A DNA stretch of 64,000 nucleotides from Calditrichia bacterium (GCA_965227145.1 OZ245730.1:2916646-2980645); one strand, 5' to 3'. Shown: positions 11,105 to 29,708, counted from the stretch's first letter. The notes: generated by a model from the sequence alone, not told the origin. Numbers and translations are program-made.

Positions 11105-11539
11105 ATGAGTAAGAATGTTAAAACAATTGTTTTTACGGTAATCGGACTTTTAATCGGTTATGTGGGATCGCAATTTCTTATTGATACAATTTTCAAGAAA
11201 CCTAATATTGAGGAAATTCTTGTGCAAGCAGCGCAAGAGATGAATAAATCTTGCCCAATAATTTTAGACCAAGATACAAGACTCGATACTACATTGGGTG
11301 GACCTGGGAAAAACTTTTCATATTTTTATACATTAGTAAACTATTCAAAAGAAGAAATTAATCAGGATACATTGATATCCTATTTAAAACCAAACATTAT
11401 TAATAATGTAAAAACCCATCCTCAAATGGCAATATTTAGAGAGAATGATATTACAATGAATTATAATTATAAAGACAAAGATGGAGTTTTTTTATTTATT
11501 ATTTCAGTCACACCGGAGGAATATAAAAATCAATTGTGA
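11105..11539 (+). CDS. Cassette-borne membrane-anchored hypothetical protein
   Basis: AAGGAG RBS; N-terminal TM helix; NKSCP...DQDTRLD motif. Confidence 0.75.
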   Translation: MSKNVKTIVFTVIGLLIGYVGSQFLIDTIFKKPNIEEILVQAAQEMNKSCPIILDQDTRLDTTLGGPGKNFSYFYTLVNYSKEEINQDTLISYLKPNIINNVKTHPQMAIFRENDITMNYNYKDKDGVFLFIISVTPEEYKNQL

Positions 11540-14500
11540 TGCAATCCTTCAAGATATAATCTAAAGAGTCCGTTTTTCGTAAGTAAAAGGTTTTCAGTAG
11601 TTTATATTTTGGTTGTTTGCAAATCCGTAAGTTTCGTGTGTTTTTTTGCAACGTATTTTTTCGTGGTAAAAGTCGGTTTGTGCGGTTCTAACTGTCGGTT
11701 GTACCGGACGCAACCGCAGGGCTGTGCTTCTGTTCTAAAAAATATCTGTGCAAATCAGTTTAATAAAATCAGCAAATTATGGCGTAGTGTTGCGCCGGTA
11801 AACCGTTTTGTTAGATTAAAATTCCGTTAATTTCAAAAAGAAAAACTCCAAAAAATGGAGTAATTGCCAACGCAGAAATAATATTTTAAAAGACATCCGC
11901 GAACGAAAGTGAAAGCCAATTTGATGAATAATATTTAAGAGTCGGTTTTACGTAAGTGAAAGGTTTTCAGTAGTTTATATTTTTGGTTGTTTGTAAAACC
12001 TTAAGTTTTGTGTGTTTTTCGCAGTTTATTTTTTCGTGGTAAAATTCAGTGTTGCGGTTCTAACTTTCGGTTGTACCGGACGCAACCGCAGGGCTGTGCT
12101 TTCGTTCTAAAAAATAATTGTGCAAATAAGTTTAATAAAATTAGCAAATTCGGTGCAAGTGTTGCGCCGGTAAACCGTGTTGTTAGATTCAGTTTTGTAT
12201 TTTTACAAAAAAGAAAAGACTCCGAAAAATGGAGCAAAAGCCAACGCAAAGTAAATATTTTAAAAACGTCCTCTTTTCGTAAGTGAAAGCCAGTTTGCGG
12301 GATAAATATTTAAGAGTCGGTTTAATTTAGTGCTGGGTTTTTGCAAGTTTATATTTTGGTTTTGTGGTCAACTGCGGGCTTCTGTAAAAATGTAAGTCAG
12401 TTGGCGGAGCTTTGTAAAAACAAAGTGTTGCGTTTCTAACTTTCGGTTGTACCGGACGCAACCGCAGGGCTGTGCTTTTGTTCTAAAAAATATTTGTGCA
12501 AATGGGTTGTAAAAATTCAGCAAATTGTGGCGTAGTGTTGCGCCGGTAAACCTTTTTGTTAGATTGAAAATTCCGTTAATTTCGAAAAGAAAAACTCCCA
12601 AAAATGGAGTGATTGCCAACGCAAAGTTAATATTTTAAAGACGTCCGCTTTTCGTAAGTGAAAGCCTATTTGCGGGATAAATATTTAAGAGTCCGTTTTT
12701 CGTAAGTGAAAGGTTTTCAGTCGTTTATATTTTGTTTGTTTGCATTTTCGTAGGTTTTGTGTGTTTTTCGCGGCGTATTTTTTCGTGGTAATTTTTAGTG
12801 TTGCGGTTCTAACTTTCGGTTGTACCGGACGCAACCGCAGGGCTGTGCTTTCGTTCTAAATTTTAGTTTGTGCAAATGGGTTGTAAAATATCAGCAAATT
12901 CGGTGCATGTGTTGCGCCGGTAAACCGTGTTGTTAGAAAGCAAAATGAAAAAAACAAAAACCGTTTCTGATTTTTGGGAAAACATAAGTTTGTATCTGTT
13001 TTGGTTTACCAGATTGTGGTGAAAGTTCGTTCTTTTTGGTGGCAACTTCTACATGTCGTGTGTTTGCGTCGCTGGTTGCCAACGCGCGTTTTGTCTGCGG
13101 TGGTTTTGTCTGTGCAAGTTCGTTTTGTGCATTTCTAACTTTCGGTTGTACCGGACGCAACCGCAGGGCTGTGCTTTCGTTCTAAAAATTATCTGAGCAA
13201 ATAAGCTTAATAAAATCAGCAAATTCGGTGCAAGTGTTGCGCCGGTAAACCGTGTTGTTAGAAGGCAAATTGAAAAAGGCTAAAAAGTCAAAAACCGATT
13301 TTGGCTGTTGGGAAAACATAAGTTTATATCTGTTTTGGTTTACCAGATTTTGGTGAAAGTTCATTCTTTTTGGTGGTCTTTTCTACGGGTCGTGTGTTTG
13401 CATCGTTGGTTGCCAACGCGCGTTTTGTCTGCGGTGGTTGTTTGTGTGCAAGTTCGTTTTGTGCGGTTCTAACTTTCGGTTGTACCGGACGCAACCGCAG
13501 GGCTGTGCTTTTGTTCTAAATTTTAGTTTGTGCAAAATGGTTGTAAAATATCAGCAAATTGTGGCGTAGTGTTGCGCCGGTAAACCGTGTTGTTAGAAGG
13601 CAAATCGAAAAAGGCTAAAAAGACAAAAACCGATTTTGGTTGTTGGAAAAACATAAACTCTTATTTGTTTTGGTTTACCAGTTTGTGGTGAACGTTCGTT
13701 TTTTGGTGCCAGTTTCTACATGTCGTGTGTTTGCGTCGTTGGGTGCCAACGCACGTTTTGTCTGTGGTGGTTGTTTGTGTGCAAATTGGTTTGTGCTGTT
13801 CTAACTGGCGGTTGTACCGGACGAAACCGCAGGGCTGGCAGTTTCTTTCTAAATTTTAAATTGTGCAAATAAGTTTAATAAAATCAGCCGGTTGTGTGCA
13901 AGTGTTTCGCCGGTAAACCTTTTTGTTAGATTCGGTTTTGTATTTTTTCAAAAAAGAAAGACTCCAAAAAATGGAGCAAAAGCCAACGCAAAGTAAATAT
14001 TTTAAAGACGTCCGCTTTTCGTAAGTGAAAGCCAGTTTGCGGGATAAATATTTAAGAGTCCGTTTTTCGTAAGTGAAAGGTTTTCAACAGTTTAAATTTT
14101 TGGTTGTTTGTAAATCTGTAAGTTTTGTGTGTTTTTCGCTGTATTTTTTTCGTGGTAAAATTTAGTGTTGCGGTTCTAACTTTCGGTTGTACCGGACGCA
14201 ACCGCAGGGCTGTGCTTTTGTTCTAAGTTTTAGTTTGTGCAAATGAGTTGTAAAATATCAGCAAATTGTGGCGTAGTGTTGCGCCGGTAAACCGTGTTGT
14301 TAGATTCAGTTTTGTATTTTCAGAAAAGAAAAACTCCAAAAAATGGAGCAATTGCCAACGCAGAAATATTATTTTAAAGACGTCCGCTTTTCGAAAGTGA
14401 AAGCCAGTTTGCGGGATAAATATTTAAGAGTCGGTTTTCGTAAGTGAAAGGTTTTCAGTAGTTTATATTTTTGAGTGTTTGTAAATCTGTAAGTTTTGTG

Positions 14501-15035
14501 TGTTTTTCGCGGTGTATTTTTTCGTGGTAAAATTTAGTGTTGCGGTTCTAACTTTCGGTTGTACCGGACGCAACCGCAGGACTGTGCTTTTGTTCTAAAT
14601 TTTAATTTGTGCAAATTGGTTGTAAATCATCTGCAAATAGTGGCGTAGTGTTGCGCCGGTAAACCGTGTTGTTAGAATGCAAATTAAAAAAGACGAAAAA
14701 CAATTTTGGGCTGTTGGGAAAACATAAATTTGTATCTGTTTTGGTTTACCATTTTGTGGTGAACGTTCGTTTTTTGGTGCCAGTTTCTACATGTCGTGTT
14801 TTTGCGTCGTTGGTTGCCAACGCGTGTTTTGTCTGCGGTGGTTGTTTGTGTGCAAGTTCGCTTTGTGCTGTTCTAACTGGCGGTTGTACCGGACGAAACC
14901 GCAGGGCTGGCAGTTTCTTTCTAAGTTATAGTTTGTGCAAATAAGTTTAATAAAATCAGCCGGTTGTGTGCAAGTGTTTCGCCGGTAAACCTTTTTGTTA
15001 GCCGTTACTATTATCTTTAAATAATTTCTTATGAA

Positions 15036-15707
15036 ATGAAAACTTTACTTCTTATTTACATTTTAACGTTTACCTGTTATCCGCAAATATCAACTTCTGA
15101 AATTGTTGGTATTTATAGCCAAAATAGCGGATTTACTCAACAGATTCTTGAATTAAATTCAGATAATACTTTCCAATATAGATATTTTTTTGATGTGGGT
15201 GGATGGAGGTTACCTATTCACGGTAACTGGAAAATAAAGAGTGATACAATATTTTTATTTTCTTCACCATTACCTGAGATACAAGAGGTTAAAGAATCAG
15301 AAAGCAGCGACAGTGTAATAACAATAACTGTCTATAACAGAGAAAGAGAAGAGGCTTTTTTATATCCTCAAATAAAACTAAATGGTTGGCATCCAGATTA
15401 TGACCCATCAATTCATGTTATCTCAACGGATTCTGTAAAATTTGGGCCATTTCTTGTTAGTAAAAATGAGTATAATTCGCCTATAAATAACATCAAACTA
15501 TATATTGGTAATTTTGTATTGTCATATATACCAAGCGATAAAAATTCAGACACTTTTGAATTAATTCTAAATTTAACCGAAGACGAAATTTTCAATGAAA
15601 TTTTTTTTGATAATGAGCCATATCTTTATCTAAATAACATGCTTTATCAACGGTTTAATGGAGAGTTTGTGACAGAATATCCATTAATAAAAGTCAAAAA
15701 ACAGTAG
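15036..15707 (+). CDS. Cassette-borne secreted hypothetical protein
   Basis: Signal peptide; beta-rich (LELNSDNTFQY, GNWKIKSDTIFL). Confidence 0.75.
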   Translation: MKTLLLIYILTFTCYPQISTSEIVGIYSQNSGFTQQILELNSDNTFQYRYFFDVGGWRLPIHGNWKIKSDTIFLFSSPLPEIQEVKESESSDSVITITVYNREREEAFLYPQIKLNGWHPDYDPSIHVISTDSVKFGPFLVSKNEYNSPINNIKLYIGNFVLSYIPSDKNSDTFELILNLTEDEIFNEIFFDNEPYLYLNNMLYQRFNGEFVTEYPLIKVKKQ

Positions 15708-15871
15708 TTGAAGTTTATTAAATATTATCAAAAACTCGGCTAACTTTCGGTTGTACCGGACGAAACCGCAGGGCTGGCAGTTTCTTTCTAAAAAATATTT
15801 GTGCAAATAAGTTTAATAAAATCAGCCGGTTGTGTGCATGTGTTTCGCCGGTAAACCTTTTTGTTAGAAAT

Positions 15872-16252
15872 ATGATTGTTGAATACAAAAACGGCCTAAA
15901 ATTTGAATTGTTTGACGATTTTGCAATAATTTATTTCCCAGAAGAATACTGGGTTGGTAGTTGGGGTTCAATGCTGGATTTGGTTAGACATAAGATAATA
16001 AGCCATGTTAAATATATTTTAATTGATTATTCAAATGTAAAGTTTATTGGTGATGGTAGCTTTGAGTCTGCAATTCTGAGAGAAGAATTCCAACAATTAG
16101 GCGGATCAGATGTTATTCATATATCCGTTCCTGAATGTATTAAAAATCTTTGGAAATTGGCAGATCCTAAAAATGAAGTAAAACCTTTTCCCGAATTTAT
16201 GAGTAAAGAAAACGCACTAAAATACATAACACTTAACCACAGAAAAAATTGA
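15872..16252 (+). CDS. Cassette-borne hypothetical protein, weakly STAS-like
   Basis: ATG 2 nt after the R' heptamer; ILIDYSNVKFI..S and a terminal 'ENAL' resemble anti-sigma-factor antagonist (STAS) domains. Confidence 0.6.
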   Translation: MIVEYKNGLKFELFDDFAIIYFPEEYWVGSWGSMLDLVRHKIISHVKYILIDYSNVKFIGDGSFESAILREEFQQLGGSDVIHISVPECIKNLWKLADPKNEVKPFPEFMSKENALKYITLNHRKN

Positions 16253-16476
16253 GATTACCTGAATAAAGTTAATTGATGCTTTTTAATGGTATAGTTTTTC
16301 CCAAAAAGCAAAATATTATTAAACTATTTCTAACTTTCGGTTGTACCGGACGAAACCGCAGGGCTGTGCTTTCGTTCTAAAAAATATTTGTGCAAATAAG
16401 TTTAATAAAATCAGCAGATTATGGCGTAGTGTTTCGCCGGTAAACCTTGTTGTTAGATTCGGGCAAAATTAAACAT

Positions 16477-16980
16477 ATGGAAATAAAGGTCAAAAAACCG
16501 ATAATGTTTTTATCAATATTCGTCATTGTCGTAGCTGTTGATGCAGCTTTTAGTGGAATAACTTTGGGTAGAGATTTGATACTCAGTTGGATAATAATCC
16601 TAGGAATTCCTCTTGAATTGGTTGCTATTCTGTTTCTTATGCCAACGCTTCGCTTGTATTTCTCTGAAAAAGGCTTAAGGAGATATTGGAAAATTGGGAT
16701 AGGTAAGTATATTCTTTGGGAGGATAACCGGTTCTCACTTCAATGGAACAATGTATCAAAAGTGTTTTCAGCTTTTCCACTTTGGGTCCCTTTAAGAATG
16801 ATCGGAATTGGAGGACGAACAAATCGTCGTTATTTAGTATTTTATGTTGGCTTTGTTACAACCCAAACAAAGGAATCGATATTGTACATAGCAACTCACG
16901 TGAAAAAAGAAGTGATAAGCAACGACGTTAAGAAACTAGTCAAAAAGTATAACCAAAAAAGAGACACTCTCAAAATGTAA
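16477..16980 (+). CDS. Cassette-borne membrane protein
   Basis: Two N-terminal TM segments; first ATG after the attC. Confidence 0.7.
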   Translation: MEIKVKKPIMFLSIFVIVVAVDAAFSGITLGRDLILSWIIILGIPLELVAILFLMPTLRLYFSEKGLRRYWKIGIGKYILWEDNRFSLQWNNVSKVFSAFPLWVPLRMIGIGGRTNRRYLVFYVGFVTTQTKESILYIATHVKKEVISNDVKKLVKKYNQKRDTLKM

Positions 16981-17586
16981 GTTTTGGCAAAGTTTATAAT
17001 TCGGTCTTTGTCAATTCTGCGCTGCGGGTTAAAAGTAAGTCAGGTGGCGGAGCTTTGTAAAAATTTAGTGTTGCGTTTCTAACTTCCGGTTGTACCGGAC
17101 GCAACCGCAGGGCTGTGCTTTCGTTCTAAATTTTATTTTGTGCAATTGGTTGTAAAATATCAGCAAATTCGGTGCATGTGTTGCGCCGGTCTCGAAGGGA
17201 TGCCTTCGGCATAAACCGTGTTGTTAGAAGGCAAATCGAAAAAGGCTAAAAAGACAAAAACCGTTTTGGGCTGTTGGAAAAACATAAACTCTTATCTGTT
17301 TTGGTTTACCATTTTGTGGTGAACATTCGTTTTTTGGTGCCAGTTTCTACATGTCGTGTTTTTGCGTCGTTGGTTGCCAACGCATATTTTTCTGCGGTAG
17401 TTGTTTCTGTGCAAATCGGTTTTGTGCAGTTCTAACTTTCGGTTGTACCGGACGCAACCACAGGGCTGTGCTTTTGTTCTAAAAAATAATTGTGCAAATA
17501 AGTTTAATAAAATCAGAAAATTGTGGCGTAGTGTTGCGCCGGTAAACCGTGTTGTTAGCGACAAGAAATGTGAAGTGGACTTTAAT

Positions 17587-18516
17587 ATGGGAATTCATAA
17601 CAATTGTATTTCAACTAAGAATTGTTTCAAGTATTGCAGGTTATTCAGTAAGCTTTTGTGTTGGTTCAGTTTTGGCATTTTTATATTAACAACTATGAAT
17701 AGTTACGCTCAAACGGACAATAATGGGAATCCAATATTTAATTCAATTTCGATAAATGAGCAACAATTTACCGAGTATAATCTAATATCAAACTATTACA
17801 CACTAATAAACAATATCGAGAATAAAAACTCGTCGGTTTATGTTTCAGATACACCAACGCTAAATGAAATTGAAACTTCAGCTATTAAACTTCCATCAGA
17901 TTTCTTTATTATTGCTAAGCTACAAAATGTATCTCACTTAATAATGTTGGTTAGTTCCCCTGAAAAGAAATTTCGAGTTATTAATATTGCAACAGAGAAT
18001 GAATTAGAGTTTGATTGTGATCTGAATGGTGATATCACAGAAAATCGGGCAAATGAAATAATCCAAGAAAAATTTGATCCAAAAGCAAAAATTGAAAGTG
18101 GAATTCTCCATTTTAATGGCAAAAAACTTAAGATTATACCCAATGAGTCAATTAACAATGCAGTTCTTTCATTGATTATGAAAGAAAAATTTTATGAATC
18201 ACAACCTTCTGAATTCAAAATTCCAACGAAAGACGAGCTAAAAGAAATTATTTTAAAAGAATCTACGGAAGGTGGTAAATTTGATTTTTTTTCTGAAATC
18301 AAAGAAAAAGAATATAACGGTGTTCAGATAAAACCCGGAGTATTTACAACATTAGAGTCGATAGCATTATACAAATGGGGACGTGCAAATTATGATTTAG
18401 GAATTAATACCATTGAAGACGCCTATGCTATATATGCTGAATTTCGAAATCGTGAGATTACAGATAAGGAAAAAGCTTATATCAAAAAAGGATTTGAAAA
18501 AGAATGGGAAAAATAA
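17587..18516 (+). CDS. Cassette-borne secreted hypothetical protein (start uncertain)
   Basis: Long ORF filling the cassette; hydrophobic stretch followed by SYA-QTD cleavage-like site. The listed extension to 17401 runs through an attC. Confidence 0.75.
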   Translation: MGIHNNCISTKNCFKYCRLFSKLLCWFSFGIFILTTMNSYAQTDNNGNPIFNSISINEQQFTEYNLISNYYTLINNIENKNSSVYVSDTPTLNEIETSAIKLPSDFFIIAKLQNVSHLIMLVSSPEKKFRVINIATENELEFDCDLNGDITENRANEIIQEKFDPKAKIESGILHFNGKKLKIIPNESINNAVLSLIMKEKFYESQPSEFKIPTKDELKEIILKESTEGGKFDFFSEIKEKEYNGVQIKPGVFTTLESIALYKWGRANYDLGINTIEDAYAIYAEFRNREITDKEKAYIKKGFEKEWEK

Positions 18517-18726
18517 ATTTTTCATGGTCGTTATATTCCTAACAATTTGCCTGATGGTCGCTAACTTCCGGTTGTACCGGACGCAACCGCAGGGCTGTGC
18601 TTTTGTTCTAAATTTTAGTTTGTGCAAATGGGTTGTAAAATATCAGCAAATTGTGGCGTAGTGTTGCGCCGGTAAACCGTGTTGTTAGATGGGTTCAATA
18701 TAAAACATTCAAAGTGAACACTAAAT

Positions 18727-19137
18727 ATGCTTTTATTTAAAATAATAATTTTAATATTAATATTATGTACATTCTTTTTTGGACAAGAAATTAATCAAAA
18801 CTTTCTAAATACAATTTGGATATGTGAAGTCACAAGCGAAGCCAATGATTCATTGTATCTCAATCTTGACTTGTCATTTATTAACTATAATTGTGAAATA
18901 GATGAGCACACCTATGGAACATTTAATATTTATAAAGACACTTTATATTTGTCTCAGGAATTTGGAGAGTTTGATTCTACATTTAAAGAAGGATCTATAC
19001 ATAGAAGAGGAAAAGCAATATATAAATATTTAATTTTAGACCAAGATAATATTAAACTAGTTTGTTACAAGGAAAATAATGCATTGCAAGGAATTTTAGA
19101 ATTTGATTGTGAAAATATTTTAAAAAAGGTAAAGTAA
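18727..19137 (+). CDS. Cassette-borne secreted hypothetical protein
   Basis: Signal peptide; beta-rich body. Confidence 0.7.
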   Translation: MLLFKIIILILILCTFFFGQEINQNFLNTIWICEVTSEANDSLYLNLDLSFINYNCEIDEHTYGTFNIYKDTLYLSQEFGEFDSTFKEGSIHRRGKAIYKYLILDQDNIKLVCYKENNALQGILEFDCENILKKVK

Positions 19138-19148
19138 ATAAATCACTT

Positions 19149-19253
19149 TTTTAACCCGTACTGTACGCGACACTTGCGTCGCGCGATGAATTTCGTGAAA
19201 GTCCTGGGCAACCGCCCTATTCCGGTGCGCATGTAAGTACTAAATCGTTAGAT
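19149..19253 (+). other. Foreign-type attC site
   Basis: TTTTAAC...GTACTGTACGCGACAC / GTGCGCATGTAAGTAC...GTTAGAT imperfect inverted repeat at the exact position an attC is expected, unrelated in sequence to the resident family. Confidence 0.7.
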
Positions 19254-20430
19254 TTAGTTTTGTATTTTTCAGAAAAAAAAAAAGACTCCGGAAAACGGAG
19301 CAATAGCCTACACAAAATTGATATTTAAAAGGAGCCCGTATTCGAAAGTGAAAGCCAAGTTGCAGGATTTGTTTTTAAGAGTCGGTTTACTTTAGTGCCA
19401 GTTTTTCGCAAGTTTATAATTTGGGTTTTGTATTCAACTGCGGGCTTCTGTAAAAATGTAAGTCAGTTGGCGGAGCTTTGAAAAAACAAAGTGTTGCGGT
19501 TCTAACTTTCGGTTGTACCGGACGCAACCGCAGGGCTGGCAATTTCTTTCTAAGTTTTAGTCTGTGCAAACAGTTGTAGAATATCAGCAAATTTGGTGCA
19601 AGTGTTGCGCCGGTAAACCGTGTTGTTAGATTCAGTTTTCCATTTTTTCAAAAAAGAAAAGGCTCCAAAAATGGAGTAATTGCCAACGCAAAGTTAATAT
19701 TTTAAAGACGTCCGCTTTCCATAAGTGAAAGCCAATTTTCAGGATAAATATTTAAGAGTCCGCGATTCAAAAAGTGTGGTTTTGGCAGGTTTTATTTTTA
19801 CTTTTTCTGTTTTCTGTCAGTGTTTTGGTCAGTCATAATTTTTTATTTTTCTGTGCAGTGCAAATCAGTTTTTGCGGTTCTAACTTTCGGTTGTACCGGA
19901 CGCAACCGCAGGGCTGTGCTTTCGTTCTAAGTTTAGTTTGTGCAAAATGGTTGTAAAACATCAGCAAATTTAGTGCATGTGTTGCGCCGGTAAACCGTGT
20001 TGTTAGAATGCAAATCGAAAAAGGCTAAAAAGACAAAAACCGATTTTGGCTGTTGGAAAAACATAAACTCTTATCTGTTTTGGTTTACCATTTTGTTGTA
20101 AATGTTCATTTTTTGGTGCCAGTTTCTACATGTCGTGTTTTTGCGTCGTTGGCTGCCAACGCGTGTTTTGTCTGCGGTGGTTGTTTGTGTGCAAGTTCGT
20201 TTTGTGCGGTTCTAACTTTCGGTTGTACCGGACGCAACCGCAGGGCTGTGCTTTCGTTCTAAATTTTAGTTTGTGCAAATGGGTTGTAAAACATCAGCAA
20301 ATTGTGGCGTAGTGTTGCGCCGGTCCCGATGGGATGCCTTCGGCATAAACCTTGTTGTTTTGCAAGCTGTACTTGAGTCAGTCACTAAAATATTACTTTA
20401 TTTATCTACGTTTAAATGGTTTTTCAATAC

Positions 20431-21429
20431 ATGGGAAAGATCACCACATTATTTGTCAGTAAAGTTTTTGGGGCTATTGAGTGTAATATCGATAGTAAAA
20501 ATGCCCTGGCCCAATCAATGGGGATTGAGTTAAACAAGCCGGTTTATATGATTTCGGATACACTGTATTATTCATTTTTTGAAAAGGCAGCCAAAATTGA
20601 CCGAAATGGCGCAACGCTGCCTCTGAGAACGGGTGCTAATATGCAGATCGATGACTATGGCGCTTTTGGGCTTGCCTGGAAATCGGCAACCACGCTTCGT
20701 GGGTCTTATAACCGTGCTGAACGGTATGCCCGGGTTCTAACCAGTGTTTCCACATATGAAGTGGAAACCACGAAAGATGGAGCGTTCATCCATTTGCACC
20801 GTTCCGGGGAAAGGCGTCTTGGTATGCGATTGTCGAACGAGGCTACCATTGCCAGCGTCTTAACGATCAGCAGGGAAGTGTCCACAGAAACAATTCATCC
20901 GATAGCCGTTTATTTCAAACACCCAGCACCGGAATCCATTGCAGGTCATGAAACCTTTTTTGGCTGTCCGGTGCATTTCGGCTCGGATAGAGACGCACTG
21001 CTCATCTCAAAGGAAAGTCTACATGCACCTAACAAGCTTGGTGATGAAAGTATTTCAAAATTCTTTCAATCACACCTTGAAACTGAACTGTCGAAACTTG
21101 AAGATGATACCGCCCTTGATGCGCAGGTTCGGCGTCATGTGACACAATCCCTGAGTGAGGGCGTGCCAATGATCTCTGATGTTGCCCTTCATCTTGGTAT
21201 GAGTGGGCGAACCCTGCAACGACGGTTATCGGCGTTGGGATACTCGTATCAAACCCTGGTTGATGAATCACGACGACAGTTAGCTGAGCGCCTGTTGCGA
21301 AAAACCGACTTTTCCCTGGTTGAAATTGCTTTTATGACTGGCTTTTCCGAACAAAGTGCATTTGCCCGCGCATTTAAGCGCTGGGCTGGGCATACCCCCC
21401 GAAATTTCCGCATTCGTCATCAAACATAA
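20431..21429 (+). CDS. AraC-family transcriptional regulator
   Basis: N-terminal ligand-binding domain plus C-terminal HTH (LGMSGRTLQRRL; IAFMTGFSEQSAFARAFKRW). Confidence 0.93.
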   Translation: MGKITTLFVSKVFGAIECNIDSKNALAQSMGIELNKPVYMISDTLYYSFFEKAAKIDRNGATLPLRTGANMQIDDYGAFGLAWKSATTLRGSYNRAERYARVLTSVSTYEVETTKDGAFIHLHRSGERRLGMRLSNEATIASVLTISREVSTETIHPIAVYFKHPAPESIAGHETFFGCPVHFGSDRDALLISKESLHAPNKLGDESISKFFQSHLETELSKLEDDTALDAQVRRHVTQSLSEGVPMISDVALHLGMSGRTLQRRLSALGYSYQTLVDESRRQLAERLLRKTDFSLVEIAFMTGFSEQSAFARAFKRWAGHTPRNFRIRHQT

Positions 21430-21442
21430 CCTCCAATTGCTG

Positions 21443-21484
21443 AAATTTGGCATCAGATGTCAAAAATTTGGCAGAGATCGTCAA
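21443..21484 (+). promoter_or_regulatory. Tandem 21-bp direct repeat, probable AraC operator
   Basis: AAATTTGGCATCAGATGTCAA / AAATTTGGCAGAGATCGTCAA between the AraC gene and the NmrA-like gene. Confidence 0.6.
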
Positions 21485-21623
21485 GAATTAAAATAACCCA
21501 ATTGTTATTTTTTGCTTGTTACTAAGAACGATATGTCATCGTCAAGGTTGCTTTTTATCAATGGCAGTACTGCACATTTGAAAAGTAATCTCATTTATTC
21601 ACTATTTTACTTAGGAGCAAGCT

Positions 21624-22472
21624 ATGACACATTTCAATCATAACAAAACGGCTGATTTTAACGGTCAGATTCTCGTTCTTGGCGGGACCGGAAAAACAGG
21701 CCGACGCATCGTCACTGGTCTTCAGGCGAAAGGGATTCCGGTTCGAATTGGTTCGCGTTCTGCATCCCCATCGTTTGACTGGAACAATGAGAAAAGCTGG
21801 GATGCCTGTTTAGCAGATGTTGAAGCGATATACATCTCTTATGCACCGGATTTGGCTATGCCTGGCGCAACGGATACTATTCAAGCTCTGGTTGACCGAG
21901 CAAAACAAAAAGGTGTCCGGCGCCTGGTATTGCTGTCCGGTCGGGGCGAAGCCGAGGCTCAAGCCTGTGAACGCATAGTTCAGGAAAGTGGCCTGGCATG
22001 GACAATTGTTCGAGCCAGCTGGTTTTACCAAAATTTTTCTGAAGGCGCTTTTGTTGATATGGTTTCTGCCGGACAAATAACATTGCCTGCAGGCGATACT
22101 CCCGAGCCATTTGTTGATGTTGAAGATATTGCGGATGTTGCTATTGTTGCATTAACGGAATCAGGACATTCCGGCGAAATCTATGAAGTGACCGGCCCGC
22201 GCCTGATGACATTTGCTGACATCGCTAAAGAAATATCAAAAGCGACACATCGAGACATAACATACGTTCAGGTCCCACATGAGGGTTTTGTAACTGAAGT
22301 TGCAAATTCAGGTGCCCCGAAGGAAGTTGTTTGGATGCTGGATTATCTTTTTTCTACAGTATTGGATGGGCGCAACGCCTACCTGACCGATGGGGTGCAG
22401 CGTGCCCTGGGTCGCCAGCCACGAGATTTCGCTGAGTATGCACGAACCGCAACCGCCGCTGGCGCATGGTAA
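21624..22472 (+). CDS. NmrA-family NAD(P)H-binding protein
   Basis: GGTGKTG Rossmann motif; FVDVEDIA; YEVTGP. Confidence 0.9.
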   Translation: MTHFNHNKTADFNGQILVLGGTGKTGRRIVTGLQAKGIPVRIGSRSASPSFDWNNEKSWDACLADVEAIYISYAPDLAMPGATDTIQALVDRAKQKGVRRLVLLSGRGEAEAQACERIVQESGLAWTIVRASWFYQNFSEGAFVDMVSAGQITLPAGDTPEPFVDVEDIADVAIVALTESGHSGEIYEVTGPRLMTFADIAKEISKATHRDITYVQVPHEGFVTEVANSGAPKEVVWMLDYLFSTVLDGRNAYLTDGVQRALGRQPRDFAEYARTATAAGAW

Positions 22473-22516
22473 AAATAAAGGAAATATCATTATCAAATCG
22501 ATAAAGGAGCAAACGT

Positions 22517-22768
22517 ATGCGATTTATGCTGAAAGCTACATGGAATCAACCGTTTGATGAAACAATGCAGGCCCTGTTGCCCGCAGAGGAAGCCAGAGCG
22601 GATGAGTTAGCCGAGCAAGGGATAATGGAAGCTTTGTATCTCCCGGCTGATCAATCGGGAGCGTGGTCAGTTTGGCGATGTAAATCGCACGACCAGGTCC
22701 GGGAAATCGCCCGGACGCTGCCGCTGTACAAGTTTCTGAACTTCGAAATAACGCCGTTGGAAGATTGA
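22517..22768 (+). CDS. Muconolactone isomerase-like small protein
   Basis: AAGGAG RBS; E.ARA.EL..QG and TLPLYKFL..EITPL motifs. Confidence 0.7.
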   Translation: MRFMLKATWNQPFDETMQALLPAEEARADELAEQGIMEALYLPADQSGAWSVWRCKSHDQVREIARTLPLYKFLNFEITPLED

Positions 22769-22788
22769 GAACAATTCGCTCAGCTATG

Positions 22789-22825
22789 ATTGACAAAGTC
22801 AAGTTAGCAACTCGGCTTTGTCAAT
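22789..22825 (+). terminator. Stem-loop after the NmrA/isomerase genes
   Basis: ATTGACAAAGTCAAGTT-AGC-AACTCGGCTTTGTCAAT imperfect inverted repeat ~20 nt after the stop codon; no immediate U-tract. Confidence 0.4.
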
Positions 22826-23044
22826 CCAGCCGAAGTATAACTGTAACCATTTTTTTATAGCAAAGTTACACACCTATGGGCAGTTGTTGAAAAAATAGTT
22901 TATAACCCAAATCCACTACCTGATCTAATGGATTCACGTTAAATCATCCATATCGGAATTTATGTTAAAAAAAAAGTGATTCGTGTTAGAGATTTTCTAC
23001 AAAAATGACTAATTTCGATAGTTACCAACAAAGAGAATCAGAAT

Positions 23045-23953
23045 ATGGATAATAAAACTATCAGACACAATTCCATTAGTCAACTTCATGAAACAATGGG
23101 ATTTAACAAGCCTACCCATCCGTTGATCACCATTATTGATGTATCCAAACTTGCATACGGTGAAGAACTCATTGGAACAAAATTTACATCTGACCTTTAT
23201 TGCATTGCCCTTAAGGACAAAAGCTGCGGGCTTGACTATGGAAGAACCCATTACGACTTTGATGAAGGCACCTTAATTTTTATGGCTCCCAATCAGGTGT
23301 TTTCGGTTAACAAAGCCCAGGCGCTAAATGAAGTCAAAGGTTGGATGCTTTACTTCCATCCGGACCTGATAAGAAATACTAAACTTGGCGACAGAATTGA
23401 TCATTATTCTTTTTTCTCCTATGCGGTACATGAAGCGCTGCATTTATCCGCTCAAGAAGAAGCAACCATTACCCAAATTATCCAGATGATACAGGCAGAA
23501 ATCAAAGAACGTATTGATAATCATAGCCAACGGGTTTTGGTCTCAGATATCGAATTATTATTGAATTATTGTACGCGATATTACGAACGCCAGTTTAATA
23601 CACGAACAGCACAAGGTCAGGATGTCGTATCAAAAGTAGAGTCGTTATTGAACGATTATTTCAAATCCGGGAATTTATTGGAATTTGGCCCCCCTACTGT
23701 TCAATACCTCGCCAAGGAATGTTTCCTGTCCCCGGGCTATTTGAGTGATCTTTTAAAAAAAGAAACAGATAAAACCGCAAAAGACCACATTAACCACTTT
23801 TTGGTCGAAAAAGCCAAAAATCTACTCCTTGGTTCCAATGAATCGATCAGCGGCATCGCTTATACGCTTGGCTTCAACTACCCGCATTATTTCAGCCGCC
23901 TTTTTAAAAGTAAAACCGGCATTACACCACAGGAATATCGACGCCAAAATTAA
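23045..23953 (+). CDS. AraC-family transcriptional regulator
   Basis: YGRTHYDFDEG N-terminal motif; IAYTLGFNYPHYFSRLFK HTH. Confidence 0.93.
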   Translation: MDNKTIRHNSISQLHETMGFNKPTHPLITIIDVSKLAYGEELIGTKFTSDLYCIALKDKSCGLDYGRTHYDFDEGTLIFMAPNQVFSVNKAQALNEVKGWMLYFHPDLIRNTKLGDRIDHYSFFSYAVHEALHLSAQEEATITQIIQMIQAEIKERIDNHSQRVLVSDIELLLNYCTRYYERQFNTRTAQGQDVVSKVESLLNDYFKSGNLLEFGPPTVQYLAKECFLSPGYLSDLLKKETDKTAKDHINHFLVEKAKNLLLGSNESISGIAYTLGFNYPHYFSRLFKSKTGITPQEYRRQN

Positions 23954-24103
23954 TTAAATGGTGATATTGCCCCACATTCTATAGCTTCTCGCCTAAAAAA
24001 TCCAAAAAATGTGTTCTTCTTTCCAGAATCTGTGTTAAGGATAGAATGCTCATGTGACTATTTTGTTTCTATCAATCTGTAACCAAATTGAAGGGACAAC
24101 ATA

Positions 24104-24982
24104 ATGAGCAGAAAAATTCTCATCACCGGTGCAAGTGGCGGCATTGGTAAACTCACAAGCATAGCCATTGCAAAAAAGGGAAGTCGGGTAGTTGGCTCCA
24201 TGCGTTCGCTAAAAGGTAAAAATGCAGATGTCACCGAAGAACTGAAAGCTGCAGGCGTCCAATTGGTTGAAATGGATGTAACGAACATAGCCAGTGTTAA
24301 TCAGGGTGTTGAAACAGCGATTCAATTACTGGGTGGATTAGATGTCGTCATAAACAATGCCGGTATCGGCACGATAGGAATACAAGAGTTTTTCACCGTT
24401 GAAGATATGCACAAGGTTTTCGATGTCAATGTTTATGGGGTTCAACGGGTCATGCGGGCAACGCTTCCACATCTTAGAAAACAATCGCAAAGTACCGTTA
24501 TTCATATCTCCAGTGGTATCGGCAGATTGACATTCCCGTTTTATGGAACTTACTGTGCTTCGAAATATGCGTTGGAAGCAATGGCGGAAAGCTACAGAGC
24601 CGAACTTGCGGGATTTGGCATCGAGTCATACATCGTTGAACCGGGTGCAATGCCGACAGAATTTTTGGATGTTATGCTCCAACTTCAACCAAAGGATGAA
24701 GAAAGAAGCATGACATATGGTGAAATGATCCACATACCAAAGGCAGGCATGGAAGGGCTACAGCAATTATTGCAAACCATTCCCGATCAGCATCCGCAAA
24801 AGGTCGCCGATGCCATTGTTGACCTGCTGGCAATGCCGTTCGGTAAAAAACCGTTCAGGACTGTGGTTGATTACACTTTCCTGAAAGAACCTGTTGAAGC
24901 GTACAACAAACTTTTGCATGACATCACCCGGCAACTTTATACTGCTAACGGGATGGAAGATATGTTGAAACTTAACAAATAA
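24104..24982 (+). CDS. Short-chain dehydrogenase/reductase
   Basis: TGASGGIG, NNAG, YCASK motifs. Confidence 0.93.
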   Translation: MSRKILITGASGGIGKLTSIAIAKKGSRVVGSMRSLKGKNADVTEELKAAGVQLVEMDVTNIASVNQGVETAIQLLGGLDVVINNAGIGTIGIQEFFTVEDMHKVFDVNVYGVQRVMRATLPHLRKQSQSTVIHISSGIGRLTFPFYGTYCASKYALEAMAESYRAELAGFGIESYIVEPGAMPTEFLDVMLQLQPKDEERSMTYGEMIHIPKAGMEGLQQLLQTIPDQHPQKVADAIVDLLAMPFGKKPFRTVVDYTFLKEPVEAYNKLLHDITRQLYTANGMEDMLKLNK

Positions 24983-24993
24983 GGAATTTGGAA

Positions 24994-25809
24994 ATGAATA
25001 AAACAGTTCTAATTACAGGAACCAGTAGCGGCATTGGTAAAGCCGCTGTCCACTTGTTTAATGAAAAAGGATGGAATATCATCGCAACGATGCGCGACCC
25101 CGAAAAAGAGAAAGAATTCCATAACCTGAAGAATGTTCTGCTCACCCGGTTAGATGTGCTGGATCTGCCATCAATTGATCAAGCTATCCGGGAAGGCATC
25201 GCCAGATTTGATAAAATTGACGTTCTGGTAAACAATGCCGGCTATGGCGCCTACGGGCCGTTGGAAGCTTTCCCGAGAGAAAATATCATCCGTCAATTTA
25301 ATACCAATGTCATTGGTTTGATTGATGTTACCAGGGCAGTTATCCCTCATTTCCGGCAGCATAAAAATGGGGTCATTGTTAATATTTCCTCTATCGGCGG
25401 GAAAATGACCTTTCCATTGGGTTCCCTCTACCATGGAACCAAGTTCGCCGTTGAAGGCATATCCGAAGCTCTAAGCTATGAAATGGCAAAGATTGGCGTA
25501 AAAGTAAAAATCGTAGAACCCGGGATGATAACTACCGATTTCGGCGGCCGTTCCTTTGACTTTCAAAATGATGAAAGTATGATCGAGTATCAGCAATTAA
25601 TTGCTGCTGTATTCAAAGGTTTTAAAAAATTCGGGAACAATGCCTCACCCGCCAAAATGGTAGCAGAAGTGATTTTTACAGCTGCAAACGATGAAACAAA
25701 CAAGCTACGGTATCGGGCTGGTGCTGATGCAGAATATCTACTGGGCAATCGCCGAGAGATGGACGAAGACGAATTTATTGCAATGATCAAAAGCCAGTTT
25801 GATTTGTAA
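24994..25809 (+). CDS. Short-chain dehydrogenase/reductase
   Basis: TGTSSGIG, NNAGYG, YHGTK motifs. Confidence 0.93.
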   Translation: MNKTVLITGTSSGIGKAAVHLFNEKGWNIIATMRDPEKEKEFHNLKNVLLTRLDVLDLPSIDQAIREGIARFDKIDVLVNNAGYGAYGPLEAFPRENIIRQFNTNVIGLIDVTRAVIPHFRQHKNGVIVNISSIGGKMTFPLGSLYHGTKFAVEGISEALSYEMAKIGVKVKIVEPGMITTDFGGRSFDFQNDESMIEYQQLIAAVFKGFKKFGNNASPAKMVAEVIFTAANDETNKLRYRAGADAEYLLGNRREMDEDEFIAMIKSQFDL

Positions 25810-26058
25810 AACAGCCTTGAAAATTTACGCATATAAAAGAGAGATTCATAACGCAAGCGGGCGCTAAAAATCTGCGCATCAGAGTGAGCCAAGGGCAGTT
25901 GGTTCTTCTTTGTGGTATGGGAATATTATAATTGTTGGAAAATTGTTTTAAGAAATGTGTTCAAGTGACCTTATCCCTTTATACTCAGACCGTTAGTAAG
26001 CATCGAATGCTAAGACTATTAAAGACAATTTTTTTTTGAAACAATATAATTTCGACCT

Positions 26059-26149
26059 ATCTAAAAAGCGGTTGTACCAGACACAAACGCAGGGTTGTGC
26101 TTTTGTTCTAAATTTTAGTTTGGCAATGGATGTAAAACATCAGCAAATT
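26059..26149 (+). repeat. Degenerate, truncated attC of the resident family
   Basis: ATCTAAAAAGCGGTTGTACCAGACACAAACGCAGGGTTGTGCTTTTGTTCTAAATTTTAGTTTGGCAA...CATCAGCAAATT; right arm missing. Confidence 0.8.
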
Positions 26150-26325
26150 ACGAATACGATTAACATTCAATATCTGCAGTTTTTTATCAAAGAAAAGTTT
26201 CTTTTGCAACTGTATTTATTTATCTTCTTATCGAAGAATCAAAAAAAAGACCATTTGTTAACAATGAATCTAACCTGCATTTTAATAATAAATAACGGAT
26301 CTCAGAATTTATTTAGAAGACTAAA

Positions 26326-27450
26326 TTGATAAAAAATAATTATTTGCCAAAAAGCAAATTCTGGAGATATATACCATTTAGAAGATATCTAATATTTGTT
26401 TCGGCGATATTCTTTCTATTTTCAGGAATTGGATTTATCATCGATCTACTTTCAAAAGGTTCATTTTCAGAACCGCTGCTTTTTATTAATGTGATTTATT
26501 CAGGGATTGTTGCAGTATTCTATGTTTATTCTTTTACAAGAAATCTTAAATTCCTACCGTTTACTATCATATTTCAAATTGTAGTTGGAATTAACATCTG
26601 GAAAGGAGCTAACCAATTACCGCTTTCCGAATTTCCCCAAAGAGCATCTTTGGATGCCTTTGGAATTTTAGTAACAATTGTTCTGGGATACATACTGCTT
26701 GTTATATTTATTAATAAGGAGGGATTAAGAAATTTTCGGCTTCAGGCTGAAATGGACCTTGCGCAGGAGCTTCATTCGAACCTTGTTCCAAAAATTGAAA
26801 TAGTTAATAACCGTTTTGAAATATTTGGAGTATCTAATCCTACTGATGAAGTCGGCGGCGATTTAATTGACTATTTCGAAAATGAGACTTCCCATACTTG
26901 TTATATTGCAGATGTATCGGGTCATGGAGTTGCGGCAGGTTCATTGATGGGGATGTTTAAGAGCACGATTCGAGTTTTATTAAATAAAGATGAACAGCTA
27001 AGTTCAATTTTAACTGAAACCAGCAAGACAATTTACAATTTAAAAAAGAAAACCATGTTTCTTACATGTGCATTTTTGAAATTTAATCCAAATTATACTG
27101 TGGAATATTCAACAGCAGGACATCTTCCGATTTTAAAACTTGCAAATGATTCGAACAATTTTGATGAATTGATAATAAAGCATCTTCCAATTGCAGCGAC
27201 AAAAGATTTTAATTATAGAACAAACAGCACAGTATGGAACAAGAATGATATATTCATATTATTAACTGATGGAATTACAGAGACGACAGATAATAAAGAT
27301 GAAGAATTTGGAATGGAAAAAGTAAAACAAATTGTTCTTAATAACAGACATGAGGAATTGTCGCATATTTATGAAAAAATAAGTAATAAGTTAGCTTCAT
27401 ACGGTAAACAAATTGATGATCAGTCAATTTTATTAATCAAATGTTTATAA
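26326..27450 (+). CDS. Membrane-bound PP2C/SpoIIE-family protein phosphatase
   Basis: N-terminal TM helices; VGGD, ADVSGHG, TDGITE, DDQS motifs. Confidence 0.92.
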   Translation: MIKNNYLPKSKFWRYIPFRRYLIFVSAIFFLFSGIGFIIDLLSKGSFSEPLLFINVIYSGIVAVFYVYSFTRNLKFLPFTIIFQIVVGINIWKGANQLPLSEFPQRASLDAFGILVTIVLGYILLVIFINKEGLRNFRLQAEMDLAQELHSNLVPKIEIVNNRFEIFGVSNPTDEVGGDLIDYFENETSHTCYIADVSGHGVAAGSLMGMFKSTIRVLLNKDEQLSSILTETSKTIYNLKKKTMFLTCAFLKFNPNYTVEYSTAGHLPILKLANDSNNFDELIIKHLPIAATKDFNYRTNSTVWNKNDIFILLTDGITETTDNKDEEFGMEKVKQIVLNNRHEELSHIYEKISNKLASYGKQIDDQSILLIKCL

Positions 27451-27528
27451 TTATCATTAGTTTTATTTTTTTTACTAAAATTATAAATTGAGTTTTGTCA
27501 TCTTGACGAAGTGAAAATCTAGACTTTT

Positions 27529-27978
27529 GGTAGTGCGACATTTTGATTGATACAATTCTTTATTTTCGTATATTTCACCAAAAAGAGGTGACTCATGATC
27601 ACAGAGAATTTCAAATGCAGAAAATGTCAGTCATCAAATGTCGTCAAAAATGGCTCAAATGCTTCCGGTAACCCGAAATTCAAATGCAATGACTGTGGGT
27701 TTACCGGTGTCATCAAATCCTTACGAAAATCCGATGAAGTGAAGGAGCAATTGATCAAGGCAGCCCAGGAACGCGTCTCCTCGCGGGGTCTTGGTCGAAT
27801 GTTTGGTGTTTCCTATAATACTGCCCTTCGTTGGATAAAAAAAAGCACCGGCACTGCCTGATATTTGTAAAACACTGATGCCTTATCGTAAAGGCGATAT
27901 GCTGGAACTAGACGAGTTATGGTCATTTGCCTGTCAAAAGTCCGACAAGAAATGGATTTGGTTCTCTTTATGCCACTG
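27529..27978 (+). mobile_element. Truncated IS1-family element (InsA plus partial InsB)
   Basis: Left end GGTAGTGCGACA; zinc-ribbon/HTH ORF 27595-27861; A-run slippery site at ~27837-27844; shifted frame reads LELDELWSF...KWIW then stops at ~27978. No right end seen. Confidence 0.82.
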
Positions 27979-28183
27979 AAATATCACAGATAATTATTCA
28001 ACCCTTTTTTTTGTTGCATTCGTAAGTCCTTCGGGTGCAAAAGCAGCAATTTCTGTTTTCCCCCTCTCCAGTCTTTTTAGAAATCCGTCGAGATATTTGT
28101 TGCCGATATTTTTTTTATGCACGATCCAAAATTTCAATTGAGAACGCAAATCTTCCTTTGTTGTTGCAAGTTGTTTTGTGCGA

Positions 28184-28337
28184 TCCTAACTTTCAGTTGT
28201 GCCGGACGCAACCGCAGGGCTGCTGTTTCTTTCTAAAAAATATATCTGTGCAAATTACTTTAATAAAATCAGCAAATTCGGTGCAAATGTTGCGCCGGTC
28301 CCAAAGGGATACTTTCGGTATAAACCGTTTTTTAGCG
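28184..28337 (+). repeat. Degenerate attC with 22-bp insertion and mutated R'
   Basis: TCCTAAC...GCCGGT[CCCAAAGGGATACTTTCGGTAT]AAACCGTTTTTTAGCG; the G of the GTT core is lost; preceded by a D-like tail. Confidence 0.82.
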
Positions 28338-28433
28338 CAGGCTCATTGCGGTTTAGGGGTAACCACCTGATAAATAACAAGCAGTTTATTACAAATTTCT
28401 ATACCCTTCATTAAAACGCAATGGCATTCTAAG

Positions 28434-29540
28434 ATGAAATCCGCACCTTTATTTTTTTCGTTTTTTCTTGTCATTTTTTCACTTCAGCTCTCAGCCAAAA
28501 GTGTTGCGATCCGGAAAATATTGGATAGCAATTTGTTTGAGATCGAAGGCGGGCAGAAAATTAAATTGGCTTATATTGACGTTCCTTCAGTCATGGATTC
28601 CAATCCCAAAAATCGCTCATTTGCACGCTTCGTACAGCGATATGCCAAGGCTAAATTACTAAATAAATCTGTTGAAATTGAATACATTGTATCAGTTGAG
28701 GACACAACGGACGTTCGCCGGGTTTGTATGTGGAAAAAATATCCTATGCAAACCGTTGATGTTATCAAAGAATATTTGGAAAACGGTTTTGGTAAACTGT
28801 TGCAACAAACCGGATTGCCCGTTGAAGAAGCTTACTTTGCTGCCGCACAAAAGGCAAAAAGCGGACATCGCGGCGTCTGGAATCCAAATTTTTACAATCT
28901 CGCTCCCCAAAATATTTATACCACTAACCTGATATTGGGCTACGGCAACGACAACGACGGTTCCCCATATAATGAAATATTGCTAAATACAAAGTTTTTT
29001 GCAAACGACAGTGAGTTTGGTATACAATTGTTAAGGATGTATGGGGAATACTCTTTAGAATACAGCAAACCACAAGATGGCGTACTTTACTATATCGTTA
29101 ATTTATATACGGGCTTTTATGGAAAAAACATTGGGTTTGAGCCGGGGTTTTTCTATATACATATCCCCTACGAACGACGTCACCGCAACTTTGCGTTGCC
29201 AAACGCCCGATTGAAAATCGGAGATTTGGAAAAAGCATATTTCAGTCTGGATTTTCTGACTGATTTATACTCCCCTTTTTCGATTGGGATAAATATTGTA
29301 TCTAATGACAACTGGTATTATAAAATTTGGTTTGGCATAACACCATTGTCCTTAATTACGAGTGAAGATAGATGGATGGCAGCCGTAAAGTCTGAATTTG
29401 CAATTTCAAAGAATTTGTTGTTTAATATACAGGGTATTATGGTTGACGATCGCTATGACCCAACACGATATGGTTTCCGGATAGGTATCGGCTTTCAGTT
29501 TCCCGTAAGTACTCGTAATCCTGATTTTAATCATAATTAG
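28434..29540 (+). CDS. Exported protein with degenerate thermonuclease (SNase) domain and beta-strand-rich C-terminus
   Basis: Signal peptide; IRKILDSN, IKLAYIDVP, YLENGFG, AQKAK...RGVW pattern; C-terminal alternating strands ending GFRIGIGFQF. Confidence 0.72.
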   Translation: MKSAPLFFSFFLVIFSLQLSAKSVAIRKILDSNLFEIEGGQKIKLAYIDVPSVMDSNPKNRSFARFVQRYAKAKLLNKSVEIEYIVSVEDTTDVRRVCMWKKYPMQTVDVIKEYLENGFGKLLQQTGLPVEEAYFAAAQKAKSGHRGVWNPNFYNLAPQNIYTTNLILGYGNDNDGSPYNEILLNTKFFANDSEFGIQLLRMYGEYSLEYSKPQDGVLYYIVNLYTGFYGKNIGFEPGFFYIHIPYERRHRNFALPNARLKIGDLEKAYFSLDFLTDLYSPFSIGINIVSNDNWYYKIWFGITPLSLITSEDRWMAAVKSEFAISKNLLFNIQGIMVDDRYDPTRYGFRIGIGFQFPVSTRNPDFNHN

Positions 29541-29564
29541 TCAAACATCCGGACACGAAATTTG

Positions 29565-29708
29565 GGTCGTACCGGATGCAACATCCAGGCTGGCAGTTTT
29601 GTACTTATTTATAATTTGTGCAAAAAAGTTTAATAACATCAGCAAATTATGGCGTAGTGTTGCGCCGGTTCGGAAGGGATGCATTCGGCATAAAACGTGT
29701 TGTTAGAA
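29565..29708 (+). repeat. Degenerate attC with 22-bp insertion, R'' lost
   Basis: GGTCGTACCGGATGCAAC...GCCGGT[TCGGAAGGGATGCATTCGGCAT]AAAACGTGTTGTTAGAA. Confidence 0.8.

Follow-up and report, generated by a model that had tools for sequence, protein, structure and literature searches.

An attC array with a 22-nucleotide insert in its distal sites

The window analysed here, a 64,000-nucleotide (nt) stretch from a Calditrichia bacterium (G000:C1:2916646-2980645, where G000 is the genome under study and G001 a sister species of the same genus), contains the last part of a large chromosomal integron, several of whose attC sites are split by a 22-nt insert without an open reading frame (ORF). The array adjoins an integron integrase and attI: an intact IntI is encoded on the minus strand at genome 2798178-2799143. 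It scores 472 bits with the TIGR02249 model, for which the cut-off is 265, and its gene lies ~950 bp before the first cassette, which begins near genome 2800095. As attI and intI lie ~116 kb left of the window, the inserts in the window are at the far end of a 146-kb sedentary integron, in agreement with the distal placement given in an initial annotation of this DNA. A search with a 5' anchor recovered 241 attCs in the interval genome 2800350-2944830, each of them on the + strand, and the degenerate last site brings the number to 242; the truncated attC listed below was excluded from attC counts. The features of the window that concern us are as follows.

1..29708, + strand: distal 30 kb of the 146-kb sedentary chromosomal integron cassette array (whole array, genome 2800095-2946353; top strand +)
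17078..17229, + strand: attC #1, with insert; R'' TCTAAC, L' AAACC and R' GTTAGAA intact
17191..17212, + strand: insert copy 1, CTCGAAGGGATGCCTTCGGCAT (direct reading and pattern match)
20211..20363, + strand: attC #2; R' damaged (GTTTTG); followed by ~5.7 kb with AraC-type regulator and SDR oxidoreductase genes
20325..20346, + strand: insert copy 2, CCCGATGGGATGCCTTCGGCAT (direct reading and pattern match)
26061..26150, + strand: truncated attC, 5' half only; the orthologous G001 site is complete, degenerate and insert-free
28185..28338, + strand: attC #3; R'' CCTAAC, R' damaged (TTTAG for GTTAG); G001 ortholog with a diverged insert
28300..28321, + strand: insert copy 3, CCCAAAGGGATACTTTCGGTAT; compensatory G:C to A:T change in the second mini-hairpin
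29580..29708, + strand: attC #4, last of the array; 5' half degenerate, L' AAAAC, R' GTTAGAA intact; G001 ortholog with insert
29670..29691, + strand: insert copy 4, TCGGAAGGGATGCATTCGGCAT; the G001 ortholog is the family consensus, CCCGAAGGGATGCCTTCGGCAT

The boxes of the host attCs are canonical (R'' TCTAAC, R' GTTAGAT, L'' GGTT[G]T and L' AAACC), with a stem of ACCGG[A]CGCAAC against GTTGCG-CCGGT. In the DNA fold of the insert-free bottom strand R'' and R' (RYYYAAC/GTTRRRY) pair, as do the L boxes, and the top-strand 5' arm GGTT[G]TACCGG[A]CGCAAC set against GTTGCG-CCGGTA-AACC gives bottom-strand extrahelical bases in a T-N6-C arrangement.

Direct reading of the window found four 22-nt inserts at the same base of the L' box, each splitting CCGGT^AAACC, with the coordinates and sequences that the initial annotation had reported. 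The 16-nt core pattern GGGATRCNTTCGGYAT, allowing up to two mismatches, matched the window four times (at 17197, 20331, 28306 and 29676, all on the + strand), a number reached in none of 100 shuffled windows (mean 0.39 matches). Insert-free attCs read ...GCGCCGGTAAACCGTGTTGTTAG (or ...GTGTTGCGCCGGTAAACCGTGTTGTTAGAT), and carriers read ...GTTGCGCCGGT[22 nt]AAACC... (or ...GCGCCGGT + 22 nt + AAACC...) in three sites, the fourth having AAAAC; relative to the insert-free sites the extra DNA is exactly 22 nt, which bears out its description as an insertion into a canonical attC. The junction, ambiguous by one T (CCGGT^AAACC or CCGG^TAAACC), lies in the attC 3' arm, 17 nt before the R' end, and the orientation of the insert relative to the attC top strand is constant in all carriers.

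A fifth carrier attC lies 1.8 kb left of the window (genome 2914882, window -1763) and completes, with #1 to #4, the five carriers of the array; a sixth copy of the insert was found 270 kb away, at genome 2646026, in a degenerate attC-like 3' end that we call the relic. The insert is missing from 236 of the 241 aligned attCs. Four of the 240 attCs with both anchors have a non-canonical tail, which in all four is the insert, and among these 240 no other type of insertion was found at this position. The carriers rank 198, 234, 239, 241 and 242 of 242 in the array; the probability that all five would fall within the last 45 attCs is 1.8e-4, and the observed rank sum was reached in none of 200,000 random draws. 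Boxes are intact in two of the five carriers (#1 and the window -1763 site) vs 232 of the 236 insert-free attCs (Fisher p = 1.5e-4). Three of the four sites in the window were described at the outset as having a damaged R' or R'', and they do: R' reads GTTTTG in #2 and TTTAG in #3, and #4 has lost its 5' half and has L' AAAAC.

Two adjacent mini-hairpins as the likelier fold

The insert was initially drawn as a single hairpin, CCGAAGG-GATG-CCTTCGG. That structure is the minimum-free-energy fold of the consensus (7 bp), but the variation among copies does not bear it out. The two positions that would pair at its centre vary independently (G/C 27, G/T 20, A/T 18 and A/C 16 in the 81 matches read), and one-mismatch variants fall mainly in two loops (AAC, GAT, TTT, TGC) that correspond to the stem centre of the single hairpin. 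Two adjacent 11-nt mini-hairpins, (T/C)CCC-RAA-GGG-A-TGCC-TTY-GGCA, fit the variation better. The layout is (T)CCC-nnn-GGG(A) followed by TGCC-nnn-GGCA, with the variation in the two 3-nt loops, and compensating stems are seen in relatives within the same genome (CTCC/GGAG, CCAC/GTGG, TTCC/GGAA and CCGC/GCGG), at #3 (ATACT/GGTAT) and in the G001 ortholog of #3 (ATGCC-CTG-GGCAT).

A dispersed module family

The 21-nt core of the insert, CCCRAAGGGATGCCTTYGGCA, is not specific to attCs, as it recurs in unrelated contexts in Bacteroidota, Ignavibacteria, Calditrichota, Balneolaceae and Chlorobiota. A scan of one genome per species gave at least 121 core loci, 80 of which were listed and 81 matches read; the listed matches also include Marinimicrobia and one Patescibacteria record, and they share no flanks. 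Within the same family the core is present in 9 of 16 genomes and 5 of 11 genera, in several unrelated non-attC repeat contexts. The insert thus belongs to a dispersed family of micro-hairpin modules, and the term 'micro-element' first applied to it is apt. The flanks of the core carry a weak consensus only (T at position -1 in 65 of 81 matches and C in 16, with GGATT[C/G]T upstream and nAA downstream). An early impression that the module always sits at hairpin tips was weakened, since only 8 of the 79 copies compared across phyla have a perfect flanking stem of at least 5 bp, where permuted partners would give 3.0. SRM-like flanks (see below) were seen in 9 of the 79.

A parallel to the attC insertions is seen in a Cyclobacteriaceae genome (L174, G032:C1:23300-25300), where downstream of an intact tRNA-Ser(UGA) gene lies a partial copy of it whose anticodon loop is longer by exactly 22 nt and reads CTTG + 22 nt + AAAACCGG. 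Where the homology of this partial duplicate ends there is also an inverted variant (TGGC/GCCA stem). In a second genome (L123) a tRNA-Ser-like sequence has its D-loop, its anticodon loop and probably its variable arm occupied by modules. Pedobacter has 18 core copies in one genome and 2 in a congener. In Pedobacter G033:C2 (L200) the stop codon of a histidine-kinase gene and the start codon of a response-regulator gene are separated by a 93-nt insertion that includes the core, while in four congeners (L201-L205 compared) these two codons overlap and the site is empty; the 35 nt to the right of this core are themselves a repeat dispersed through the genus. The 22-mer may therefore sometimes travel inside larger units. 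Other genomes of the Fibrobacterota-Chlorobiota-Bacteroidota (FCB) group (L051, L074, L087 and L088) have tandem modules or variants, for example CCCAAAGGGATGCCTTCGGCA-T-CCCGAAGGGACTCCTTCG..., which suggest local amplification. Genome G010 has filled and empty hairpin units 64-71 nt apart in one larger repeat; these are not orthologous sites and are suggestive only.

Viral contigs had the core at only 2 loci, and so give no sign of a phage-borne module. Rfam 15 gave no match in the window at gathering scores and, for twenty module loci from other taxa, only two weak, chance-level matches at E <= 1; a weak 'tmRNA' match in L125 proved to be the T-arm of a tRNA-Ser copy. A match in G002, of the same genus, that had been read as an attC was rejected, being an SRM-like hairpin with the module in its loop, and a metagenome scan for the right junction of attC and insert (CCTTYGGCATAAACYGTGTTG) gave three loci, all chance matches in coding sequence. 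A full-text literature search with 14-15-mers of the core found no match and no description of the module.

Sister species, paralogs and other runs

Five attC-like matches were found in G001, four of them with the insert. Window positions 28175-29705 align to contig C18 of G001 at 91% identity, so that #3 and #4 each have an insert-bearing ortholog in that species, as does the attC relic. The insert of #4 has the family consensus in G001 and three changes in G000. That of #3 differs strongly between the species, with the second hairpin still paired in both (ATACT-TTC-GGTAT in G000, ATGCC-CTG-GGCAT in G001), and one G001 ortholog of an insert is a 23-nt variant. The G001 intI, 97% identical, lies at a contig end; the main array of that species is therefore unassembled and its carriers are uncountable.

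Carriers #1 and #2 have close relatives within the array. The body of cassette #2 is 98.5% identical to insert-free paralogs, and the cassette with its attC is 96% identical to three insert-free copies, the attC being identical up to the insertion point. For cassette #1, insert-free paralogs match the body at 99.2% identity, and the 3' half of its attC differs from theirs by clustered changes, which makes attC #1 a mosaic. In contigs of other public runs, insert #2 is present without a 22-nt gap in three and insert #3 is present in four; no 22-nt deletion at #2 or #3 was seen in contigs of four public runs. The contigs of two runs end exactly at the #4 junction, which we attribute to assembly repeat branching and treat as neutral evidence; contig loose ends reading AAACCGTGTTGTTAG at junctions most likely derive from the 236 insert-free attCs.

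Origin of the copies

The module entered an attC of this integron at least once, and later copies may have come from new insertions or from short-tract exchange between attCs. One explanation, put forward in the initial annotation, is that there were several independent and highly site-specific insertions, the module or its mover recognising the folded attC and reaching the same nucleotide at least twice in the lineage. We regard this as tenable, and on balance somewhat doubtful. The carrier 3' arms fall into two classes, ..TCGGTGCAWGTG.. and ..TRTGGCGTAGTG.., and the attCs closest to each carrier are insert-free: over the 3' half the closest of these is 2-5 differences away for four of the five carriers (12 for #3), and the other carriers, 7-22 differences away, come 36th to 235th in order of closeness. 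The same junction occurs at eight distinct carrier loci across two species, and the tRNA-Ser target CCGGTCTTG^AAAACCGG resembles the attC target CCGG^TAAACCG. An attC tree, suggested beforehand as a way to tell a single origin from independent ones, proved uninformative: covering the four alignable carriers (#4 was left out, its 5' half being unalignable), it requires four changes of state, but a single clade passes the approximately unbiased (AU) test (p = 0.46). Repeated insertion is also weakened by the mosaic structure of attC #1, by the capacity of gene conversion to erase ancestry, because the attCs are short and ~95% alike, and by the finding that this genus holds no module copy outside attC contexts that could serve as a source. 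Every module copy in G000 and G001 is in an attC or attC relic, a distribution equally to be expected if the module entered once and was then copied from attC to attC by homology.

Predicted effect on attC and the favoured interpretation

The two extrahelical bases (T-N6-C on the bottom strand) are separated by a 6-bp helix, and it is within this helix, on the opposite arm, that the insert is placed. When folded as DNA, the insert-free bottom strand forms a canonical attC; the insert-bearing strand retains the R box, the L box and the stem, and branches between the latter two. The model thus predicts a third arm, which would make a three-way junction beside the L box. Excision of attC is described as governed by the extrahelical bases and by the N6 distance that separates them (PMC3053210), and this published role, together with the geometry of the insertion, makes attC inactivation a reasonable inference; it is plausible that the insert disables the attC that it occupies. 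The position in the helix, the distal clustering, the decay of R boxes and the orthologous retention in the sister species all fit the initial proposal that the insert inactivates attC and locks cassettes in place.

We therefore favour, as probable if some way from secure, an interpretation in which a 22-nt module of the FCB group entered one or more attCs, adds a third arm to them, weakens their use by IntI and fixes the distal cassettes. Before the divergence of G000 and G001 the module would have entered an attC at least once, in the 3' arm at CCGG^TAAACC, and would then have reached other attCs at the homologous nucleotide, either by further targeted insertions or by short-tract homologous exchange between ~95% identical attCs; our leading guess for the copying is a process acting on folded single-stranded DNA (ssDNA). 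On folding, a single strand with the module is predicted to form the third arm, and use of the site by IntI would be weakened or abolished, to judge from published attC work. Cassettes bounded by such attCs may then become immobile and collect in the most distal part of the array, and their R boxes would be lost to drift.

Another possibility is that the insert is a selected, functional part of an attC subclass, such as a boundary or stop site, a transcript-stabilising or terminator-like hairpin, or a variant site still used by IntI. The constant orientation is what one would expect of such a part, as is the fact that the last three complete attCs of the array and the last two on the G001 contig have the insert; the pairing of the second mini-hairpin has moreover been kept by compensatory changes in #3 and its ortholog. 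We nevertheless judge a selected function to be improbable, since the oldest copies drift (3-4 changes in 22 nt in #3 and #4, and the 23-nt G001 variant), faster than the ~9% divergence of their flanks, no T-run follows the insert, the R boxes of carriers decay and the same module occurs in unrelated places, such as the anticodon loop of a tRNA copy. That the insert is the footprint of a departed larger element (IS1111-attC, group IIC-attC intron or IS91-type) is very improbable. Such elements do target attC sites according to PMC3001079, but they are described as inserting near the attC 5' end in antisense, and the present insert occupies the 3' arm; in other phyla hundreds of unrelated sites have the same 22-mer on its own, and the list of all near-matches in this genome includes no larger element with these ends.

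A number of points weigh against the cassette-fixing interpretation itself. The case for inactivation is one of geometry and correlation, and the rank and box correlations are confounded, the three damaged carriers being also the three most distal; in addition, the attC set was gathered by a 5' anchor, which favours intact sites, and the distal clustering was seen before it was tested. Cassettes #1 (99.2%) and #2 (98.5%) have insert-free paralogs, some near attI, so these two carriers appear recent, or recently exchanged, and not anciently frozen. Neither this genome nor G001 has an outside source copy or shows signs of general invader activity. The filled and empty Pedobacter sites differ by 93 nt, not 22, and insertion into hairpin loops is a tendency, not a rule (8 of 79 copies vs 3.0). 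Finally, no mobilising enzyme was identified, the four Y1-transposase genes of this genome being flanked by other repeats.

The initial suggestion that the 22-mer might be found at the ends of Y1 (IS200/IS605 or RAYT-type) loci was not borne out at the four PF01797 genes of this genome, the flanks of which hold other hairpins (GAACATCTACGATGTTC, TTCCAGGCTCCGCCTGGAA and GGAATGGGCTAAAGCCCATTCC). The genome-wide list of near-matches contained no 22-mer outside attC contexts, and no separate search for IS110-family genes was made. One RAYT-like Y1 gene (L185, genome 2790564-2793908) is flanked by an array in which GAACATCTACGATGTTC is repeated five times at 52-nt spacing, ~6 kb upstream of intI, and another (L187, genome 2667545-2670781) has its own short palindromes, TTCCAGGCTCCGCCTGGAA and CGTTCCAAGCGGAGCTTGGAACG.

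A more speculative extension, which we hold to be rather unlikely as a whole, is that the 22-mer is a free-standing propagating DNA unit made of two 11-nt mini-hairpins only, copied by a trans-acting enzyme among folded ssDNA sites (attC, SRM hairpins and the loops of tRNA gene copies) across FCB phyla, and acting in integrons as a 'cassette lock' that turns mobile cassettes into fixed genes. If this were true, the free-standing 22-mer would rank among the smallest propagating DNA units known in bacteria. To our knowledge, how some of the hundreds of cassettes in sedentary integrons become permanent genes is not understood, and an attC fold jammed by a tiny insertion would offer a simple natural route to cassette fixation. 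The conservation of the module from Pedobacter to Calditrichia also points to an unrecognised copying process for small hairpins.

Comparison with known systems

The palindromic REP, REPIN and BIME repeats, which RAYT (Y1 HUH) transposases mobilise, are like the module short, non-coding, hairpin-forming, dispersed and probably handled as ssDNA, and the copy number of the module also varies between congeners (18 vs 2). The module differs in being 22 nt long, with two 11-nt hairpins, at ~2-18 copies per genome and in being conserved across phyla. A REP or REPIN family would be expected to have tens to hundreds of species-specific copies; here there are 6, and elsewhere 2-18, of the same 21-mer across phyla, and the module does not flank the Y1 (PF01797) genes of this genome.

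The NTS/SRM repeats of Ssn GIY-YIG nucleases (Chenal et al. 2025, PMC11893778) are reported there as cross-phylum hairpin repeats acting as ssDNA, and loop identity is described in the same paper as not essential for Ssn cleavage. This genome has SRM-like hairpins, GTCATTCCTGC...GCAGGAATC, with a variant double mini-hairpin in their loops. There are ~10 copies of GTCATTCCTGC-[TCCGAAGGAGCGCCTTCGGCGCGAAG]-GCAGGAATCTCC, in which the outer hairpin resembles NTS/SRM and the enlarged loop is the variant double mini-hairpin (genome 898715, 1616722, 1642074, 1865596 and 2019843, and further copies at 2566045, 4237258, 5549451, 5628479 and 5856607, outside the window). The 22-mer and its attC flanks are without the GTC-hairpin signature given in that paper (HGTCWY...hairpin...RNCYNB, PMC11893778), and the 22-mer appears to be a passenger in SRM loops and not an SRM.

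In concept, the small hairpin elements of mitochondrial genomes come nearest to the module. Double-hairpin elements are known from Allomyces. In the accounts available for fungi and sponges (PMC2800124, PMC4478555), double-hairpin elements, repetitive hairpin-forming elements and GC clusters similarly consist of one or two hairpins only and lie within intergenic DNA and structured RNA genes; they are organellar and specific to AT/GC context, whereas the module is bacterial and chromosomal, occurs in several phyla and lies inside a recombination site. Like the insert, IS1111-attC elements and group IIC-attC introns target integron attCs in a single orientation, and they can prevent cassettes from moving or being expressed, but they are kilobase-sized, have their own enzyme and are described as lying near the attC 5' end in antisense (PMC3001079). 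The insert is, as first remarked, far smaller, with no DEDD transposase, reverse transcriptase or any ORF in its 22 nt, and it sits in the 3' arm between L box and stem. A miniature inverted-repeat transposable element, which should have a target-site duplication and terminal inverted repeats like those of an insertion sequence, does not match the observations either, the attC and tRNA-Ser pairs showing a clean 22-nt gain with at most one ambiguous T duplicated, nor did any curated Rfam covariance model match the window at gathering scores.

With respect to fold, the first mini-hairpin, CCC-GAA-GGG, contains the C-GAA-G of the extraordinarily stable GCGNAGC DNA mini-hairpins as described in PMC13037366, and the second reads GCC-GAA-GGC on the other strand, so that each strand of the module has one C-GNA-G type triloop. 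The exact GAA loop is not required, as natural copies have AAA and other loops just as often.

Other features of the array and its distal end

The integron (window 1-29708 and genome 2800095-2916645) is highly repetitive: 184 of its 241 cassette bodies have a paralog with at least 90% identity and 155 one with at least 95%. Recurring runs of spacing in the array (for example 782-333-600-326) suggest block duplications and not moves of single cassettes.

Between attC #2 and the truncated attC lie ~5.7 kb of ordinary-looking genes (20416-25809) for two AraC-type regulators, an NAD(P)-binding protein and two SDR oxidoreductases; the window part 22952-25927 is located elsewhere in G001, on contig C1, beside a complete but degenerate attC. 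The truncated attC is followed by a gene for a PP2C/SpoIIE-like phosphatase (374 aa, window 26167-27529), whose G001 ortholog (C13:371060-372472, 90.6% identical) lies directly upstream of the insert-bearing attC relic. The different placement of the phosphatase gene in G000 and G001 is a rearrangement that links the end of the array with the relic locus.

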